Assembly: GCA_964016885.1 (NCBI GenBank)
Contig: OZ024740.1
Span: 229,462,001-229,526,000 of the forward strand
Reading direction: 5' to 3'
DNA length: 64,000 nucleotides
Origin: Eledone cirrhosa
Taxonomy: Eukaryota
In this document: positions 6,328-59,679 of the stretch, one piece after another
How positions within the stretch are numbered: the stretch's first letter is position 1
Layout: each line of letters starts with the position of its first letter
Notes under the pieces: model-generated
Told to the model about the DNA's origin: nothing
Database searches by the model: none
Seen by the model: only the letters and a program-made list of their open reading frames with translations
Made by a program: the position numbers and the translations under genes

Positions 6328-6517
6328 GGTTGGTTGGCAGTATCAGTAGAGGGTCGGATGCCATGCTTTGACGCATAGAGTTACGCCCCTTTCCATTCTG
6401 AGTTCAAATCCCGCCGACGTTAACTTTGCCTTTCATCCTTACGGGGTCGGTCGATAAAATAAAGTACCAGTAATGCATTGGTTATTGCTGGCCTTGTGCC
6501 AAAAGTAGAAACAATTA
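6328..6517 (+). mobile_element. SINE family A
   Basis: A box TGGCAGTATCAG, B box GAGTTCAAATCCC; flanking direct repeat TTAYGTTAATCTTGGT. Confidence 0.85.
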
Positions 6518-7559: not shown

Positions 7560-7838
7560 CTACAGGGTCGATAAAATAAAGTACCTGTAATGCATTGGGT
7601 AATTACTGGCCTTGTGCCAAAAGTAGAAACAATTATTATCATTGTAAGGGCGGTGGATTGGCAGTATCGGTAGAGGATGGACGCGCATGCTTTCGAGCAT
7701 AGTTACGTCCCTTTACGATCTGAGTTCAAATCCCGCCGAGGTTGACTTTGCCTTTCATCCTTACGGGGTCGATAAAATAAAGTACCAGTCATGCACTGGT
7801 TAATTGCTGGCCTTGTGCCTAAAGTAGAAACAATTATT
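7560..7838 (+). mobile_element. SINE family A: partial copy followed by a full copy (7647-7838)
   Basis: Pol III A and B boxes, conserved body GGGGTCGATAAAATAAAGTACCAG, AATT/ATT tail. Confidence 0.9.
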
Positions 7839-7892
7839 TAATAGAATAGCGATTGATTGGTAGAATCGGTAGAGCATTGGACAACATGCAAT

Positions 7893-16430: not shown

Positions 16431-16510
<80 letters not shown>

Positions 16511-16513
<3 letters not shown>

Positions 16514-16690
16514 ATGAGAACAAACGTGCTGCGTGGTTTCAAATGGGTTACATATGAATAAAGTTAGTCCTTCATCAGTGATCTTCCAACCATCATTGGT
16601 ATTTCATCGCTTTAAAGACCATATACCTCCGGTTGGTGCGAGCAACGGTTAAAGAAAGTCGTTGGGACACGTAAAAAAGGGGAACGAGGA
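16511..16690 (-). mobile_element. Fragment of the rearranged-hammerhead element family
   Basis: Near-identical to the junction and terminal repeat of 44482-45167. Confidence 0.8.
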
Positions 16691-22707: not shown

Positions 22708-22767
<60 letters not shown>

Positions 22768-23599
22768 TATAGAGAAAAATAAAAATACTGCAGGTAGCAC
22801 ATGGTAACATGTAATAAAATACGTCCCTCATCAGTGATTTGCCGAAGATCATAGATATTTCATTGCATTCGGAGAAAGCTAAAAGCGATACTCCGGGCAA
22901 ATTCCAAATCACTCAACAAACATTAGGAAATACCTGAGTATATTCCCAATTAAACGTTTGGGGTGCTAACTATATTGTATTGTGTGGATAATTGGCTGTA
23001 TTATTTCATATGAGCTATATCAAATATATCATTTCCCAGACGACTCGTTTCATTATAAGATTTCTACAAGTTGGGTGAAATTATACCAAGTTATGTAGAA
23101 GCTTGTATAAGATCAACAGATATTTATTCAAGTGGGCTCTTATAAATCTTCAGTGGGTACCCAATAACATTAATATTGATAACCAAATCAACATCAATAT
23201 TTAGCGATAATCACCATCAGTGCTTGAGGGGACTGCTAGGTGGTTGGTCCAGCAGTTCTAAAGAAAATCTCACATTGTCCCGAAAATGGGAAGAAGGAGG
23301 CTACCGCCAAAAACAATACATGCGCAGGTCGTTGAACTCTGACAAGAATTCAAGCCACTTGCTAAGAACTCAATTGGATATGAAAAAATAACTATATGTG
23401 CGCACCGCTTTATGACACAGATATTTTCTCGGGCAAAATAACAGAATGAGATATATATATATATATATGGAGAGATGATAACCATAGTATACTTAAAACA
23501 TAATTTTAATTCCACATATGTTTCCATGTATAACGGCGAGCCATACCATGATATATACGGGGTATCTGTCCGTCGATCTACATATCTTCAGAAATTTAG

Positions 23600-25150
23600 A
23601 TATTTTTATAAGTTTTTTATTAAGTTATTAAGCAATATTTTAGGTATATTGGAAGCGAAGTTTCTACTAAATGGTGGGTTAAATAGTTTAAGTTTCGTAC
23701 AATTTGACATAGATGCATATTACACATCAATCTCACCTAATCACTTAAATAGGGTCTTAATTATAGCTAAATCTGCTAATAGCCTTACTAGGGAAGAAAT
23801 TGATATTATCCCAGCAGCTAGGAAAACGATAACGAATAAATTTTGATTGTAGCCTCTAAACTCATAAGGCCCGCCCTGACAATTTCGACATAACTATGGG
23901 TCCTAGTGACTCCGCTGAAGTCACAGATTTGGTACGTATTTTCCTACTGAACAAACTGAATGGGGTTTATATCGAGACGATGCCCGCTTTGTTATGAAAA
24001 CTAACAACAGGAACATAGAAAACACGGAAATACTTTAACATAGTTTCTTTATAGACTATAACTTAAGTATAACTATAGTTAGAAATGTCACCTTTCTAGA
24101 TGTTAACCTAAACTTATTATCAGGCCTCTGTGTGCCCTACCATAAACCAGACGAACGGCTATTTCAAGTGAATTCATAGTCTAATCATCCCAAATCTGTA
24201 CTTACATCTATTGTTTTATCTACCCTTTAGTAGAAATGTTGCATTCAATATACCTAAACTATTTTTTAAATATCTTAATTAGAAAAACTTTCCTCCCACC
24301 CATTATTACTATAAAATATAAAATAAAAATACAATACCCTACCACACCGAAGCTAGCTTCTCACTTAATTTTCAGTAACAATAGAAAAATAAATAAATAT
24401 CGAATTAGTTCTTATGTTGGCGGTGGCGTTGCTAACCGTGAACGAAGAGTTAACCTCGAAAATAACATTAGTGATGATATGAATAATAATTGTTTCTACT
24501 TTTGGCACAAAGCCAGCAATTAACCAGTGCATTACTGGTACTTTATTTTATCGACCTCATAAGGATGAAAGGCAAAGTTAACCTCGGCGGGATTTGAACT
24601 CAGAATGGAAAGGGCCGTAACTCTATGTGTCAAAGCATGGCGCCGACCCTCTACCGATACTGCCAATCCACCGACTTTCATATGAATAATAATAATGATA
24701 TGAATAATAATAATAATCGTATTAATGTAATCCTGAATTCGCACAACTCTTCAATTAATTGTAATTGTAGAAACCCATCTACGTGTATTCTTAGCGGTAG
24801 ATGATTATTGAAAAACGTCGTTTACCAATGCATGATCTCTACCCAAAAATGAAAGTAACGTCTATATAGGAGCCACATCTAATACTTTTAAATCCATGTA
24901 TTATATGCACCGTTACTCATTTATAAAATAAAAAGCAAAAAGAAAAACAACAAAAAAAAAACAGCACCTCAACTTCGTTGGCTCGGTTTATCTGGGAATT
25001 AAATAAAAATAAGACTCCATACTCCACAAATTGGAAGGTCCTAAAATGGCCCAATCATGCCAACTGACAAATAAGAGATGTAACATGTGCCTGTGCATAT
25101 TGGAATCAAGGCATGCTCCGACTAACATAGGCGTGATCTATTAAAACCTA
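23600..25150 (+). mobile_element. Decayed Penelope-like retroelement (RT + GIY-YIG endonuclease)
   Basis: FDIDAYYTSI, MGPSDSAEVTDLV, YRDD, FLDVNLNL..PYHKP; CNCRNPSTCILSG..NVVY..VYIGATSNTFK; multiple stops and frameshifts. Confidence 0.9.
24488..24675 (-). mobile_element. Full SINE family A inserted in the Penelope element
   Basis: A and B boxes; flanking direct repeat ATATGAATAATAAT. Confidence 0.9.
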
Positions 25151-27655: not shown

Positions 27656-27873
27656 TGTAATACGAAAACGTGGTACTTATGTTTTCCTGTAAAAGATATA
27701 TTTTGTATCGTTGGAAGTCAACTCATCCAGGAAAAATATTTTCAAACTAGGATTCTTATGAAATTATAATCTTTCTTTACCATTTATTATTATATTTATA
27801 TGCCTAACGTATAATTGACTACTATCCTCCTTCTTATTTCTGGTTAATATAGACATATATGTTCTCATATAAT

Positions 27874-27981
27874 ATTTGTTTCTACTTTTGGCACAAGGCC
27901 AGCAATTATCACAGTGTATTACTGGTACTTTATTTTATCGACCCCGTAAGGATGAAAGGCAAAGTTAACCTCGGCGGGATT
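27874..27981 (-). mobile_element. 5'-truncated SINE family A with TSD
   Basis: TTCTCATATAATATT present on both sides. Confidence 0.85.
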
Positions 27982-28564: not shown

Positions 28565-28650
<86 letters not shown>

Positions 28651-28655
<5 letters not shown>

Positions 28656-29340
28656 TAAAGTGGTCCTTCATCAGTGATCTTCCAACCATCATCGGTATTT
28701 CTTCGCTTTAAAGACCATATACCTCCGGTTGGTGCGAGCAACGGCTAAAGAAAGTCGTTGGGACATGTAAATAAATGGTAAACAAACAAAGATGGTGAAG
28801 CAACGAAAAGTGAGGAAGAGCGAGTCAAGTCCAAAAATTTCCATGAATATAAGTTCGGTGAAATCGTGAACGAGAGAGAATAAAGACCATCAAACCTGGT
28901 TGAAATGTGAGCAAGGAAGGAATTTCGCACAGGTCTAGCGTGAGGAAGAAGGGTTCTAGTCTGTGAATTAAGTAAACATAAGTTCTGTGAAATCGTAGAC
29001 GAGAGAGAGAGAAAATGCCGACCGGCCTGGCCAAGCGTGCGAAAGAAAAGAATTACGCACAGGTCAAACGGGAAGAAGAAGAAGAAGAAGGAGGAGGAGG
29101 AGGAGGAGGAGAGGTAGTAACAGAGAGTGAGTGAGCGAAGGGTGAGGAAGAGGCTAACAGAGAGAGTGACTGTTAGAGAGGGTAAAGATACAGAGGAAGC
29201 AGTAAGAACGAAATAGACGGGTCATAGCGGGAGAAAAATATGTGTAAATATGAGAATAAACGTGCTGCGGAGTTGCAAATGGGTTACATATGAATAAAGT
29301 GGTCCTTCATCAGTGATCTTCCAACCATCATCGGTTTTTC
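28651..29340 (-). mobile_element. Terminally redundant non-coding element (rearranged-hammerhead family)
   Basis: ATGAATAAAGTGGTCCTTCATCAGTGATC.. at 28651 and 29290 (spacing 639); internal homology to the 44482 and 51327 elements. Confidence 0.8.
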
Positions 29341-29349
29341 TCTCTCTAA

Positions 29350-30339: not shown

Positions 30340-30879
30340 ATCTGAAAACGTGTGTTGAAACCGATATTGTTATACTTTGGGAGGGTCATGTTGCCAATAA
30401 GAAACACACGCACCACTTGTTTCACTTCAATTTATTATAAATTAAATTTATAAATTTAGGAATTTATAAATTTCCGGTTGGTTGGTTCCACAACCAGATG
30501 ATTGTTCATATATTGTCAAAGTTCTTTCGTCACACATTCTGTGACCTCTTCAGTGACTCGGGATTCTTTTCTTTGTTTTTGTGCCTCTCCTTTGTTCTGT
30601 CCTTGATTTTGTGTGTGTTGTAACACACACAAAATCAAGATGGTGTAGGACAGAACAAAGGAGAGGCACAAAAACAAAGAAAAGAATCCCCAGTCACTGA
30701 AGAGGTCACAGAATGTGTGACGAAGGAACTTTGACAATATATGAACAATCATCTGGTTGTGGAACCAACCAACCGGAAATTTATAAATTCCTAAATTCCT
30801 AAATTTAATTTATAATAAATTGAAGTGAAAGCAACTGGTGCGTGTGTTTCTTATTGGCAACATGACCCTCCCAAAGTAT

Positions 30880-38940: not shown

Positions 38941-39199
38941 AAGGAGTATATATATATAGATATATATATACATATATATATATATACACACACATATATA
39001 TACTTATGTTTATAAAAATATATATATTTGTGAATATAAACAGGGAGCTGGAGAAATACATGCAATTTTAACGAAAATAATCTTTTGTACAAAAGATTTC
39101 GCAAAGAGCTCAATGCGTGAAGGAATCAGATTTAAACCCTATAATATAAAAGCCTGCAACTCGAAGGGAAGGGATGAAGTTGATTAATTTTACCCCAGT

Positions 39200-39340
39200 G
39201 CGTTACTGGTACTTTATTTTATCGACCCCGTAAGGATGAAAGAAAAAGCTAACCTCGACGTGATTTTGAACACCGAATGTAAAGGGCCGTAACTATCTCC
39301 CGTAATGCATATTGTCCAACACTCTTCCGAGGCTGCCAAT
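39200..39340 (-). mobile_element. SINE family A
   Basis: Conserved body TTACTGGTACTTTATTTTATCGACCCCGTAAGG. Confidence 0.8.
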
Positions 39341-40153
39341 CCTTTTTACACTATTAATGGTATGGTATGGTATGGTATGGTATGGTATGGGCCCGTAATT
39401 CCTGATAGAGTCGTATGGGTGCTGTATTGACATACGGTGTTTCTTGGGCATTTTAAGCCTGGTAGAGTCCATCTCCTCTCCAGTCCTGAGTACAGCTGAT
39501 TTCTTCTAGAGATGGATAGAAAGTGAGAGAGAGGAAGTGAGAAAGAGATATAGAAGAAGAATCGACTAGACTGATATTTTATAAAGAATATATGTACACA
39601 TGGTAACTTCATCAGCAAAACCGAAAGAGAATCGCTTGAGAATTTTACGTTTTAAATATAACGATTTTTAGAAGCTGATGATATATGGAGGGCAATCCAA
39701 ATATAAGGAAAACAAATATGCTCAATTTGATAATAAAAGACTTTCCAAGTGTTCTCGAATCAACGAAATTAACCTTAAAAACGAGCATTTTCAAAAACTT
39801 TGCAAAACAAATATATATATATTGTTAAATTTTTTGTTAATTTTTTGTTAACCTGTTTAGCTTGCTCGTTTTTTCGGCTGCCTGGCTTGTCGATTCACAG
39901 CCATTTTTATAATGTGTCTGGCCCTTATGACGTATGTTAATTGCTCTGGCTTCTTCCTAGTCGATTGAGCGCTTGCCGGCATATCTGAAAATTGCGTTTC
40001 GTTTTGTTTTGGCAGCCGCCGAAATACGATCTCGCTGAAATTATATAAATATATATATATATATATATACATATATATAAATATATATATATATATGTAG
40101 ATAAATCTACCAAGAGTTTACGGTAGTGTCCAATCCGTATGAAGAACTCAATG

Positions 40154-42539: not shown

Positions 42540-42725
42540 AAGGATGAAAGGCAAAGTCAACCTCGGCGGGATTTGAACTCAGATCGCATAGTTACGCCCC
42601 TTTACGATCTGAGTTCAAATCCCGTCGAGGTTAACTTTGCTTTTCATCCTTACGGGGTCGATAAAATAAAGTACCAGTAATGCACTGGGTAATTGCTGGC
42701 CTTGTGCCTAAAGTAGAAACAATTA
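42540..42725 (+). mobile_element. SINE family A with an inverted 5' duplication
   Basis: 42540-42590 is the reverse complement of 42605-42651; TSD TTATGTGACGAAG. Confidence 0.85.
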
Positions 42726-43232
42726 TGTGACGAAGATGGTCTGTTAGAACTATGGAGACGAAAACAATCAAAGAAAGTGGTGTAAAGATAAGAAAATGTT
42801 GGCTGGTGACAACTACCATATTTGGAATGTGTGACAGACGCCGAGACGAAAGAACGAAACAATAGTCACGTGGTAGGAGAGGAGATATGGTCGCGGTAAA
42901 TAGAACAACTACAAGAAGGGAAATAAATAATGTTCTATATAGATAATAAACACAACCACAAGGATATGGTCTGAACTTGGAAGAGCCGAACTCCCACTGT
43001 GATCGCCTCCATCTCTTTCACCCTCCCAGGAAGGGGAGCTGCTAGCGTCACAGGTAATATTGAAAAATTGGCAGCAGATATAATCCCCCCTCTACCTATC
43101 TATCTATCTATTTATCTATCTATTGCCTCCTCCATATTGAGGACGCCTTTGCATGTAAACTCCCCCCTTTGTACTTGTCCCACTTTTGATGCCTTGGTGG
43201 CAAATAAAAAGAAAGTTATCTATTTATCTATC

Positions 43233-44465: not shown

Positions 44466-44481
44466 ATGTATATATATATAT

Positions 44482-45167
44482 ATGAATAAATTTAGTATTC
44501 ATCAGTGATCTTCCAACCTTCATTGGTATTTCATCGCTTTAAAGACCATATACCTCTGGTTGGTGCGAGCAACGGCTAAAGAAAGTCGTTGGGACACGTA
44601 AATAGGGGGAACGAGCGAGACAGTAAACATACAAAGATGGTAATGCAACGAAAGGTGAGGAAGAAGGAGTCAAGTCCCTGAAATCGATGAACATAAGTTC
44701 TGTGAAATCGTAGACGAGAGAGAATAAAGACCATCAAACCTGGTCGAAATGTGAGTGAGGAAAGAATCTCGCACAGGCCAAACGGGAGGAAGTAGGAGGG
44801 GGAGTAGTAGAGAGTGAGTGAGTGAAAGTGTGAGGAAGAGGCTAACAGAGAGAGTGACTGTTAGAGGGGGTAAAAGGAAGTGAGAGATGCAGAGAAAAGG
44901 CGAAGCCGTAAGAAAGAAACAGACGGGTCACAGCGGAGGAAATTATATATGAATATGAAAACATGGCGTGCTGCGTGGTTGCAAATGGGTTACATATGAA
45001 TAAATTTAGTCCTTCATCAGTGATCTTCCAGCCTTCATTGGTATTTCATCGCTTTAAAGACCATATACCTCCGGTTGGTGCGAGCAACGGCTAAAGAAAG
45101 TCGTTGGGACACGTAAATAGGGGCAACGAGCGAGACAGTAAACAATCAAAGATGGTAATGCAACGAA
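44482..45167 (-). mobile_element. Terminally redundant element with two rearranged-hammerhead repeats
   Basis: ~170-bp direct repeats at 44482-44653 and 44996-45167; (TA)n on both sides. Confidence 0.85.
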
Positions 45168-45453
45168 ATATATATATATATATATATATAAATACACACA
45201 CACACATGTATATATAGTATAGGCAGTACGGTGAAATACTGGTGTTGGTACTAAATCAAGTTCTATGCACAGGCAGAGTATATATAATAGAAAAAACGAG
45301 GAAGTTTCGTTTATATATGAAAAATATTTATTGCGTATCGCAGAGGATTGACTCAAGGTGACCCATGGGAGTTATGGACCCATTATATATATATATATAG
45401 ATAGATATACATCACGCATTTTCGCGCGCGCGCGCATATACACACACTCACAT

Positions 45454-51308: not shown

Positions 51309-51326
51309 TATATATATATATATATA

Positions 51327-51692
51327 TGAAAAAGTTTGTCCTCATCAGTGGCCATCCAACCGTCGTAGGCATTTCGTCGCATTAAAGGCCATATACCTCA
51401 GGTTGGTGCGAGCAACGGCTAAAAAAAAAAAAAAAAAAAAGTCGTTGGGACACGTAAATAAGGGGGACGCTAGGGTAAACGAACAAAATGGTTTAAGCAG
51501 CAGAAAGTGATGAAGAAGGAAACAAGTCCCAGATTTCTATGAATATAAATTCGGTGGAATCGTGAACGAGAGACTAAAGACCATCAAACCTGGTTGAAAT
51601 GTGAGCGAGGAAGGAATTTCGCACAGGTCTAACGGGAGGAAGAAGGGGTCTGGTCTGCGAATTCGGTAAACATAAGTTGTGTGAAGTCGCAG

Positions 51693-51758
<66 letters not shown>

Positions 51759-52200
51759 AAATTCATACCGGCTTGGCCAAGTGACCGCGAGAAAAGGATT
51801 ATGGACAGGTCAAACGGGAAGAAAGGGGAGGAGGAGAGGTAGTGACAGAGAGTGAGTGAGTGAAAGGTGAGGAAGAGGCTAACAGAGAGAGAGACTGCTA
51901 GAAAGGGTAAAGACACAAAGAACGAAACAGACTGGTGGCAGCGGAGGAAAAAATATATGTGTAAATATGATAATAATGGAGCTGCGGCGCTGCAAATGGG
52001 TTACATATGAAAAAGTTTGTCCTCATCAGTGGCCATCCAACCGTCGTAGGCATTTCGTCGCATTAAAGGCCATATACCTCAGGTTGGTGCGAGCAACGGC
52101 TAAAAAAAAAAAAAAAAAAAAAGTCGTTGGGACACGTAAATAAGGGGGACGCTAGGGTAAACGAACAAAATGGTTTAAGCAGCAGAAAGTGATGAAGAAG
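51327..52200 (-). mobile_element. Terminally redundant element with two rearranged-hammerhead repeats (divergent subfamily)
   Basis: ~193-bp near-identical direct repeats at 51327-51518 and 52007-52200. Confidence 0.85.
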
Positions 52201-53040: not shown

Positions 53041-53556
53041 AGAAATAATGTTAGTTTTTTTTACATCACAGCTACGTCTGCTCGAACTTATAGTTAACGA
53101 TGGAATTGAAATGTAAAAACGAAAGAAGGAAAGAAAGAATGAATGAATGAAAGTAATAAAGAAAGAAAGATTGAATGAAAGAAAGAAAGAAAGAAAGAAA
53201 GAGTGGAGGCGTGAGAAAAAAATCAAGTGTAAGACATGAAGAGATAGTTGATGAATGAATGAAAGAAAACATGAAATGGAAAGGAAGTAGGACAAAAAAG
53301 AAACAATGTAAGTAACGTGTTTGTGAAGGAGGAGAGGGAAAGAAACGTAAGGAATGAAGAGAAGGAAAGAGGTAGAGAATGACAATGAAAGAAGAGTGTT
53401 GGGGAAGGAGTGAAAAGCAAGCGTACGGAACATATATTAAAAGACAATAAAATAACGGAGTTTGTGAAAGAGAGAAACGAAAGGAGGCAGAAACACATAG
53501 TGAAAGAAAATGAGAAATATAGTTTGAGTGAATGAAAAGAAAGAGTAATAGACTCA

Positions 53557-54049
53557 TAATTGTTTCTACGTTTGGCACAAGGCCAGCAATTACCCAGTGC
53601 ATTACTGGTACTTTATTTTATCGACCCCGTAAGGATGAAAGGCAAAGCTAACCTCGGCGGGATTTGAACTCAGATTATAAAGGGAGGTAACTCTATGCTT
53701 CAAAGCATGGCGCCCGACCCTCTACCGATACTGCCAATCCACCGAGACTCATAATGAGAGACAATGAGAATAACATTTGTGAAGAAATGAAAAGAAAGAG
53801 CAGGCTAACGAAAGACAATCAGAATGAAGTTATGAAGAAGTGAAAAGAAAAAGCTCAGTGAAAGACAATAAGAATAATTGTTTCTACTTTAGGCACAAGG
53901 CCAGCAATTACCCAGTGCATTTATTTTATCGACCCCGTAAGGATGAAAGGCAAAGTCAACCTCGGCGGGATTTGAACTCAGATCGTAAAGGGACGTAACT
54001 GTGCTGGAAAGCATGGCGTCCGACCCTTTACCGATACTGCCAATCCACC
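53557..54049 (-). mobile_element. Two full SINE family A copies (53557-53744 and 53876-54049)
   Basis: TSDs AGACTCATAAT and GACAATAAGAATAAT. Confidence 0.9.
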
Positions 54050-54267
54050 GACAATAAGAATAATGTTAGTGAAGGAATGAACAAAAATAAGAAAGGAAAA
54101 TAAAAATTATGCAAGACGATGGAAAAGATGATGGCAATGGAGTGAAAGAAGGATAAATGAAAAAAAAAAATGAGAATAGATAGAATGAATGAGTGAAAGA
54201 GAATGTAAGACACAGATTAGAGGTTAGTAAAGGAGTGAAAATATAGGGGAGAAAAAAGAAAGGAACC

Positions 54268-59361: not shown

Positions 59362-59548
59362 AATAATTGTTTCTACTTTTGGCACAAGGCCAGCAATTAT
59401 CCCAGTGCATTACTGGTGCTTTATTTTATCGACCCTGTAAGGATGAAAGGCAAAGTTAACCTCAGCTGGATTTGAACTCAGATCATAAAGGGCCGTAACT
59501 CTATGTTTCAAAGCATGGCGTCCGACCCTCTACCGATACTGTCAATCC
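59362..59548 (-). mobile_element. SINE family A
   Basis: Full body homology to 7647-7838. Confidence 0.9.
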
Positions 59549-59679
59549 AAATGTTGGGATGACTGTTTCCGGGAACTTAGTTACTCGTCTAGAATATTAT
59601 TCAGCTCATAATCTTGTCTTTGATAGCAGATCAGAAGTGACGTCAGTAGGTAATCTTACCTTCACTCTAATCTTGTTGT

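Follow-up and report, generated by a model that had tools for sequence, protein, structure and literature searches.

Hammerhead ribozymes of types I, II and III share one cyclic order of three sequence blocks, that with CUGAUGA (C), that with GAAA (G) and that with the cleavage site (S), and fold without pseudoknots. Non-circularly permuted forms were previously found in metatranscriptomes and metagenomes, together with one doubtful bacterial case. The closest described RNAs are the type-SGC hammerheads (HRIMA-1 and the SGC variant), which were reported from metatranscriptomes and cleave in cis (PMC10085705). In that paper, Eckert et al. assumed that CUGAnGA is inseparable from its stem II strand. 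Animal non-LTR retrozymes are tandem hammerhead repeats with linear and circular monomer RNAs, probably moved by PLEs (PMC7229834). Their treatment by Li et al. 2026 (10.64898/2026.07.22.740005) uses, in its available text, type I models only. A 2026 paper cites only Eckert et al. and two other references for alternative hammerhead variants. Naiad insertions lie at (TA)n as 5'-truncated partial tandems and inverted copies, and their description (PMC8557442) reports no canonical hammerhead, marks half-cores only for Naiad_Ovul and Naiad_Esco, both annotated without pLTR, and presents the cephalopod Naiads as long inactive remnants.

The S-G-C order has so far been reported only outside animal genomes, and a stem II wired to an upstream strand was not found in print. 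A search of the openly accessible literature, without the supplements of the 2026 preprint, turned up no SGC hammerhead described from animals, PLEs or Naiads. We consider it probable that the window, by which we mean the whole 64,000-nucleotide stretch of Eledone cirrhosa DNA analysed here, carries a conserved, doubly pseudoknotted hammerhead of type-SGC order, likely to cut itself, on a non-coding tandem repeat likely copied by a Naiad enzyme.

The motif and the wiring of its stem II

Positions 45110-45009 of the minus strand, from the 5' to the 3' strand of a closing helix P0, hold a complete hammerhead core of subfamily A in type-SGC-like order, the strands running from the cleavage site through GAAA to CUGANGA and not in the C, G, S order of types I, II and III. 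An earlier note on this DNA had placed all the core parts on this strand, and every one of them was located there. The 5' half begins with GUCC (45107-45110), which pairs with GGAC at 45012-45009, so that P0 connects the 5' extension with the strand that leaves CUGAUGA. It is followed by a CAACG/CGUUG hairpin (45085-45106), the side hairpin of a predicted four-way junction, which has different sequences in families C, D and F and is missing in E; by UCGCA (45079-45083), the upstream strand of stem II, with its partner at 45053-45049; by CCAACC (45073-45078), the 5' strand of the stem I-II interaction helix, with its partner at 45033-45028; and by GGA (45070-45072), the short strand of a 3x6 internal loop and predicted kink-turn, opposite 45039-45034 (a 3-nt bulge plus GA). 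Block S (45058-45069) ends this half with stem III GGUA (45069-45066), U16.1 and A17 (45065 and 45064) and stem I UGGUCU (45063-45058). The 3' half opens with block G (45040-45057), composed of the UUAA linker, the stem II 3' strand AGCGA, U11.1, GAAA (45047-45044) and stem III UACC, and continues with AAUGAA, with GGCUGG, a common subfamily variant that gives this copy (45013-45083) one mismatch in the I-II helix, and with a single A. Block C (45013-45026), which contains stem I AGAUCA, CUGAUGA (45020-45014) and A10.1, then leads into the GGAC of P0. By analogy, the predicted cut likely falls between 45064 and 45063, after AUA, the position that had already been named.

Stem II consists of the 10.1-11.1 pair and of UCGCA/(A,U)GCGA. 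In families A-F, the 10.1-11.1 pair (A-U, G-C or G-U) is the sole stem II pair to use the base after CUGANGA; this base pairs with 11.1 in all 10 copies examined, as against 2 of 10 for the base that lies upstream of the stem II strand. All other bases of the stem II partner, like the I-II strand, are located 5' of the cleavage site. The earlier note had seen in UCGC/GCGA, GUCC/GGAC and CCAACC/GGUUGG extra helices replacing a normal stem II. The first pairing is indeed a stem II pairing, though part of stem II itself and not a substitute, whereas GUCC/GGAC is P0, and CCAACC/GGUUGG is rather the stem I-II interaction helix, extending stem III. In family G, an upstream G is the only possible partner of C11.1, and the chain passes directly from CUGANGA into P0. 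Because the 10.1-11.1 partner is upstream in this family and in the coral and clam-shrimp Naiads discussed below, A9 and 10.1 would not be chain neighbours in these RNAs. As the stem II partner, and in some cases even 10.1, would be delivered by an upstream strand held by the closing helix, the core would be made of four strands. In the architecture that we propose, stem III would enclose the strands of stems I and II and would continue through the predicted kink-turn into the I-II helix, the stem II partner would come from upstream, and P0 and the side hairpin would form a four-way junction.

The S-G-C order, the full core and a helix by which stems I and II are connected at their far sides are common to this motif and to the type-SGC hammerheads (PMC10085705), and the linker from stem I to stem II counts 4 nt here against about 3 nt there. 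In the published RNAs, however, stem II is contiguous with CUGAUGA, whereas its partner is upstream in the Eledone repeat, which is also genomic and retroelement-borne and adds P0, the side hairpin and the predicted kink-turn. The suggested comparison with published rearranged hammerheads shows a shared block order and a different wiring of stem II. As for the precedent in Xenopus Penelope-associated repeats named in the earlier note, we found no paper on rearranged Xenopus hammerheads; the published precedent is the type-SGC hammerhead of Eckert et al., and the link to retroelements points to Naiad. The published SGC pattern, as re-implemented by us, has no match in 1,877,891 bases containing 237 copies, and the separation of CUGAnGA from its stem II strand shows why published patterns miss the motif. 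An Rfam scan of 44470-45170 gave no hammerhead match at E up to 10. On the minus strand near 30553, the window holds a hammerhead core with the ordinary C-then-G order, belonging to a family that elsewhere follows PLE ORFs (loci L201, L219 and L086); the Rfam scan gave no hammerhead match there either, so that Rfam misses ordinary PLE cores as well. Of the 282 Rfam matches on the whole window, the 150 listed were rejected as microsatellite artefacts.

The loop between stem III and the I-II helix is made of three bases and GA opposite GA or UA, in which G1b, A2b and A1n are invariant, 2n is G or U, and the flanks vary. From its sequence we predict a kink-turn. The kink-turn arrangement (PMC2790904), a bulge of 3 nt and then G-A and A-G pairs, is found in families A, B, D and E and in the Octopus Naiads, and the second pair is A-U in families C and F, as in Kt-23 (PMC2790904); in family G, by contrast, these positions are Watson-Crick pairs, and the bulge sizes differ in the coral and clam-shrimp Naiads. 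The literature searched, outside subscription papers, yielded no kink-turn in a natural hammerhead. The prediction bears on a point left open by Eckert et al., the close joining of stem III and the I-II helix.

The carrier repeat and its probable relation to Naiads

The motif belongs to a subfamily A insertion (44477-45168, minus strand) flanked by (TA)n tracts. This insertion comprises about 1.3 units, in tandem, of a non-coding, pyrimidine-rich repeat of 515 nt, and its second core (44498-44568) is without the GGAC strand. Also on the minus strand, subfamily A has left a 5'-truncated copy at 16505-16688, with an intact core (16571-16641), and an insertion at 28646-29349, with a core (28667-28737) whose A at 11.1 breaks the 10.1-11.1 pair, and with the partial copy already listed near 29300, which is real and spans about 29285-29349. 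Subfamily B forms a tandem (51321-52200, minus strand) with cores at 51341-51411 and 52022-52092, both with a hairpin loop enlarged by poly-U. The six copies that had been called complete are all full-length cores with at most one mismatch to the spaced core pattern, but two of the six are damaged. To the seven copies already recognised we add an eighth from another subfamily, at 22817-22869, within a subfamily D fragment (22750-22869, minus strand, blocks G and C) that is abutted upstream and truncated by an unrelated high-copy repeat (22870-22960) elsewhere ending in (TA)n. These eight copies at five insertion sites (16505-52200) in 64 kb amount to about twenty times the implied genome average. 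The window also contains a broken PLE-like ORF fragment (23685-24215), about 42% identical to a frame of locus L063, and about ten copies of another repeat of 100-200 nt, often self-inverted and possibly a MITE or another PLE tail (1065-1168, 6328-6517, 7561-7839, 24485-24673, 27847-27981, 39194-39342, 42585-42730, 53545-54050 and 59362-59552).

In the 3.0-Gb genome, a 23-place core pattern has 17,689 sites versus 46 for the reversed pattern, and a second pattern has 740 versus 45 in its control, those among the 100 sites listed being mostly of family G. An evenly spaced sample of 800 kb contains three clear copies and a weak one, of family E, from which roughly 15,000 copies are extrapolated genome-wide; 31 ordinary C-then-G cores of several families occur in 800 kb as well. 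Subfamilies A and B have at least 40 dispersed copies each, 96-100% alike. Families C, D, E, F and G and intermediates came from the evenly spaced sampling and from sequence-only searches; by the time these searches found C-F, the structure had already been derived from A and B. A first search for family D matched an unrelated repeat and was discarded, and this family was defined from the ribozyme fragment alone. In 1.63 Mb of loci, which are enriched in the motif, the core orders number 67 for SGC, 8 for CGS, 1 for SCG and 0 for GSC, CSG and GCS, and the core with stems I and III is intact in 198 of the 237 copies of six younger subfamilies. Further low-copy SGC-type families are present at L373 (3749, minus), L377 (1469, minus), L364 (1466-1536) and L374-L376.

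The units are non-coding (496-706 nt, GC 0.39-0.45, 67-69% pyrimidine, longest ATG frame 48-108 aa), carry one ribozyme each and are often in tandem, family D arrays reaching at least five units of 496 nt; identical copies are present in this family. The 3' ends fall in clusters, at stretches of AUAU or (CU)n located 15-80 nt beyond CUGANGA, and nearly all of them pass into a microsatellite, mostly (TA)n, a figure biased by queries that hold some downstream sequence. The 5' ends are variable, and an inverted copy stands at 14 of the first 60 loci (exact 11-mer anchor). In a comparison bearing on rolling-circle copying, rare variants are shared between neighbouring copies of an array in 16 of 176 cases versus 210 of 10,581 between loci, a difference confounded by truncated flanks and subfamily tags. 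At L023 (2316 and 2959), two tandem units have the same private core-breaking change, as the subfamily B cores of the window have their poly-U loops, and such changes common to tandem units suggest the copying of one template. Words of family D (L189, 300-800) are found at shares of 0.20-0.55 in sequencing runs of three organisms, and the contigs of four such runs, of unspecified kind, all cover part of the family D unit, which tells of its presence and not of its ends or strand.

The best reading of the repeat is a retrozyme-like parasite derived from a Naiad tail. Like the non-LTR retrozymes (PMC7229834; 10.64898/2026.07.22.740005), it is a non-coding tandem with one hammerhead per unit, a GC content below 50% and thousands of copies, and a PLE origin and mobilisation are proposed for both. 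The units of those retrozymes are shorter (150-450 nt against 496-706 nt), highly self-paired and of type I instead of SGC type, and circular RNA is reported for them. Elsewhere in this genome, the tandem and inverted arrays at L100 (6165-7877) and L211 (283-1242), with 311-nt and about 470-nt units and C-then-G cores, are candidates for conventional retrozymes. Animal retrozymes suggest, by analogy, a cycle in which transcripts reading through the tandem units would be cut into monomers of 500-700 nt, which may circularise. A PLE reverse transcriptase/endonuclease would then prime at a nicked (TA)n on the AUAU located 15-80 nt past the ribozyme, and target-primed reverse transcription would write 5'-truncated, tandem or inverted copies back into the genome.

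The link to Naiads comes from their 3' ends, 14 of the 54 published ones having been examined by eye. A like fold was seen at seven of the 14, in octopus, squid, coral and clam shrimp, which represent four independent lineages; as the coral and clam-shrimp cases came from core-word searches, this proportion is not a rate. In Naiad_Obim and Naiad_Ovul, stem III is AUGG/CCAU, stem I CUGCCC/GGGCAG and stem II GACACC/GGUGUC, with UGA facing ARUGAU in the loop, and by eye the stem III and loop sequences of the Octopus Naiads are those of family E. The fold was also seen in Naiad_Esco, with a weak stem II, in Naiad_EuTe of a clam shrimp, and in three near-identical Acropora Naiads, with the UUAA linker and a 7-bp P0. 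Naiad_Bfor, with a stem I of 2 bp, is a candidate only, and the six other ends inspected were without the fold (Omin, Adux and Mley, all incomplete, and Skow-1, Dst-4 and Ppla). Nematode Naiad passages have the ordinary C-then-G order. Two of the low-copy families mentioned above (L373 and L377) resemble the Octopus Naiad ends and are Naiad-like 3'-end ribozyme remnants in the Eledone genome. Naiads (PMC8557442) and the Eledone repeat also have in common the (TA)n targets, 5' truncation, partial tandems and inverted copies, features present in other PLE clades too, but the repeat, unlike the Naiad elements, has no ORF. We regard the Naiad origin of the ribozyme as quite probable.

The identity of the present mobilising partner is less firmly indicated. 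Exact Naiad motifs from other species have 0, 12 and 0 matches in the genome, the 12 being mostly of family E and none beside a Naiad ORF, and neither peptide motifs nor tblastn searches with the proteins of other PLEs revealed a Naiad ORF next to any ribozyme in the genome; PLE fragments adjoining single copies (L011 and L305) look coincidental and were set aside. The ribozyme might have come from a Naiad tail and the young families now be moved by PLEs of a different clade, which also target (TA)n and have a C-terminal endonuclease. Such PLEs are common in the Eledone genome, neither exact short motifs nor flank searches retrieved a Naiad ORF, and the cephalopod Naiads are described as remnants (PMC8557442); since these would be long inactive while family D contains identical copies, the present partner may be another PLE. 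On the other hand, the cores that follow the other PLE ORFs of this genome have the ordinary C-then-G order, the Naiad-like remnants of L373 and L377 are present, and the Naiad searches, relying on exact short motifs of other species, are weak. We consider this substitution possible but rather unlikely, and it would alter the mobilising partner only, not the ribozyme. A Naiad as the present partner is the option towards which we lean.

Covariation of the fold and its likely activity

Families A-F have a common ungapped core of 71 nt. Using the 3' half only, we placed 246 of the 286 extracted copies in 10 subfamilies and scored the commonest letter of each column. Of the 220 cells in the ten resulting profiles, 215 are paired, and a compensatory double change is present in 17 of the 22 predicted pairs, among them five of the six pairs of the I-II helix; neither value was reached in 20,000 trials of random re-pairing (maxima of 151 cells and 8 pairs). 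In a set of 22 natural copies, hand-picked in favour of intact ones, pairing holds in 96.8% of 506 cells, against 28-47% in slid controls, and both partners have changed in 17 of 23 pairs; none of 500 shuffles reached this level. Stems I, II and III all covary across subfamilies, as does the I-II helix: stem I occurs as UGGUCU/AGAUCA, UAGUCU/AGACUA, UGAUUU/AAAUCA, UCAACC/GGUUGA and UUGUCU/AGACAA, the I-II helix as CCAACC/GGUUGG, CUGAUU/AAUCAG, CCGAAG/CUUCGG and CUGGAA/UUCCAG, and stem III as GGUA/UACC, GAUA/UAUC, AUAG/CUAU and GACA/UGUC. P0 varies little within A-F, and other sequences pair there in family G and in the Naiad ends. Twenty-two column pairs foreign to the model likewise show a double change while staying paired in all families, so that single pairs can arise from kinship, but none of them stacks on another. 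Also against the fold, the helices are short, stems I and III of family D reaching only -2.3 and -1.3 kcal/mol as duplexes, and nested minimum-energy folding lends it no support (z = 0.15). A contiguous stem II seen in L212 was attributed to mutations of an old copy, being absent across the family E alignment.

These results leave a non-circularly permuted, pseudoknotted hammerhead as the best reading, as the earlier note had proposed, and the covariation of the further subfamilies far exceeds that of the two it had compared. The compensatory changes that it described in the copies at 51327 and 52007 are real, but they are differences fixed between subfamilies A and B and therefore one subfamily contrast instead of many independent copies. 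We are highly confident that the fold is real and under selection, and by analogy we judge cleavage in cis at the predicted site to be very likely.

The structure could instead have been kept as a 3' recognition signal for the PLE reverse transcriptase, cleavage having been lost. It does lie 15-80 nt from the 3' end of the insertions, and the genomic copies are not delimited by the cut site, although uncut or cut-and-rejoined templates would give unbroken copies too. What makes this improbable is the pattern of conservation: CUGA-GA, GAAA, U16.1 and the UUAA linker are invariant in the 10 subfamily profiles, all catalytic core bases being kept while the stems are changed at most positions, and position 17 is A or C, never G.

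Minimal PLE hammerheads work as dimers, and the active form might be a strand-swapped dimer with a conventional nested core, in which blocks S and C of one unit would meet block G of the next. The copies are often in tandem, and nested minimum-energy folding of the monomer leaves stem I unformed. Against such a dimer, the I-II helix, stacked on stem III, connects strands that adjoin the S, G and C blocks in a span of 71 nt, Naiad_Ovul and Naiad_Esco carry one copy of the fold each and are annotated without pLTR, and the published SGC RNAs, which have a like short linker, cleave as single constructs (PMC10085705). We find a dimer quite improbable as the active form. Finally, a chance resemblance inside an ordinary dispersed repeat, to which the abundance of repeats in the window and the minimum-energy z value could be thought to point, is already refuted by the compensatory changes, besides which 100 shuffles of the window gave no match to the spaced core pattern and short stems I and III accompany only 2 of the 80 listed among at least 120 metagenome matches to a similar core pattern.

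A probable hammerhead outside the six-permutation scheme

Our observations on the probably self-cutting, Naiad-derived hammerhead that we favour place a non-circularly permuted form, at high copy number and with compensatory changes in a long natural series, in an animal genome. They break the premise of the six-permutation scheme, in which CUGAnGA is held inseparable from its stem II strand. They may also explain why Naiads were reported to lack hammerheads, an absence taken earlier as a hint that PLEs can do without them. We are inclined, with some reserve, to extend this to many Naiads, from corals to crustaceans to cephalopods, which would carry an active hammerhead outside the six-permutation scheme, and one of which would have given rise, through its tail, to a parasite of more than 17,000 copies. 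If so, non-circularly permuted ribozymes would be a normal part of animal genomes.
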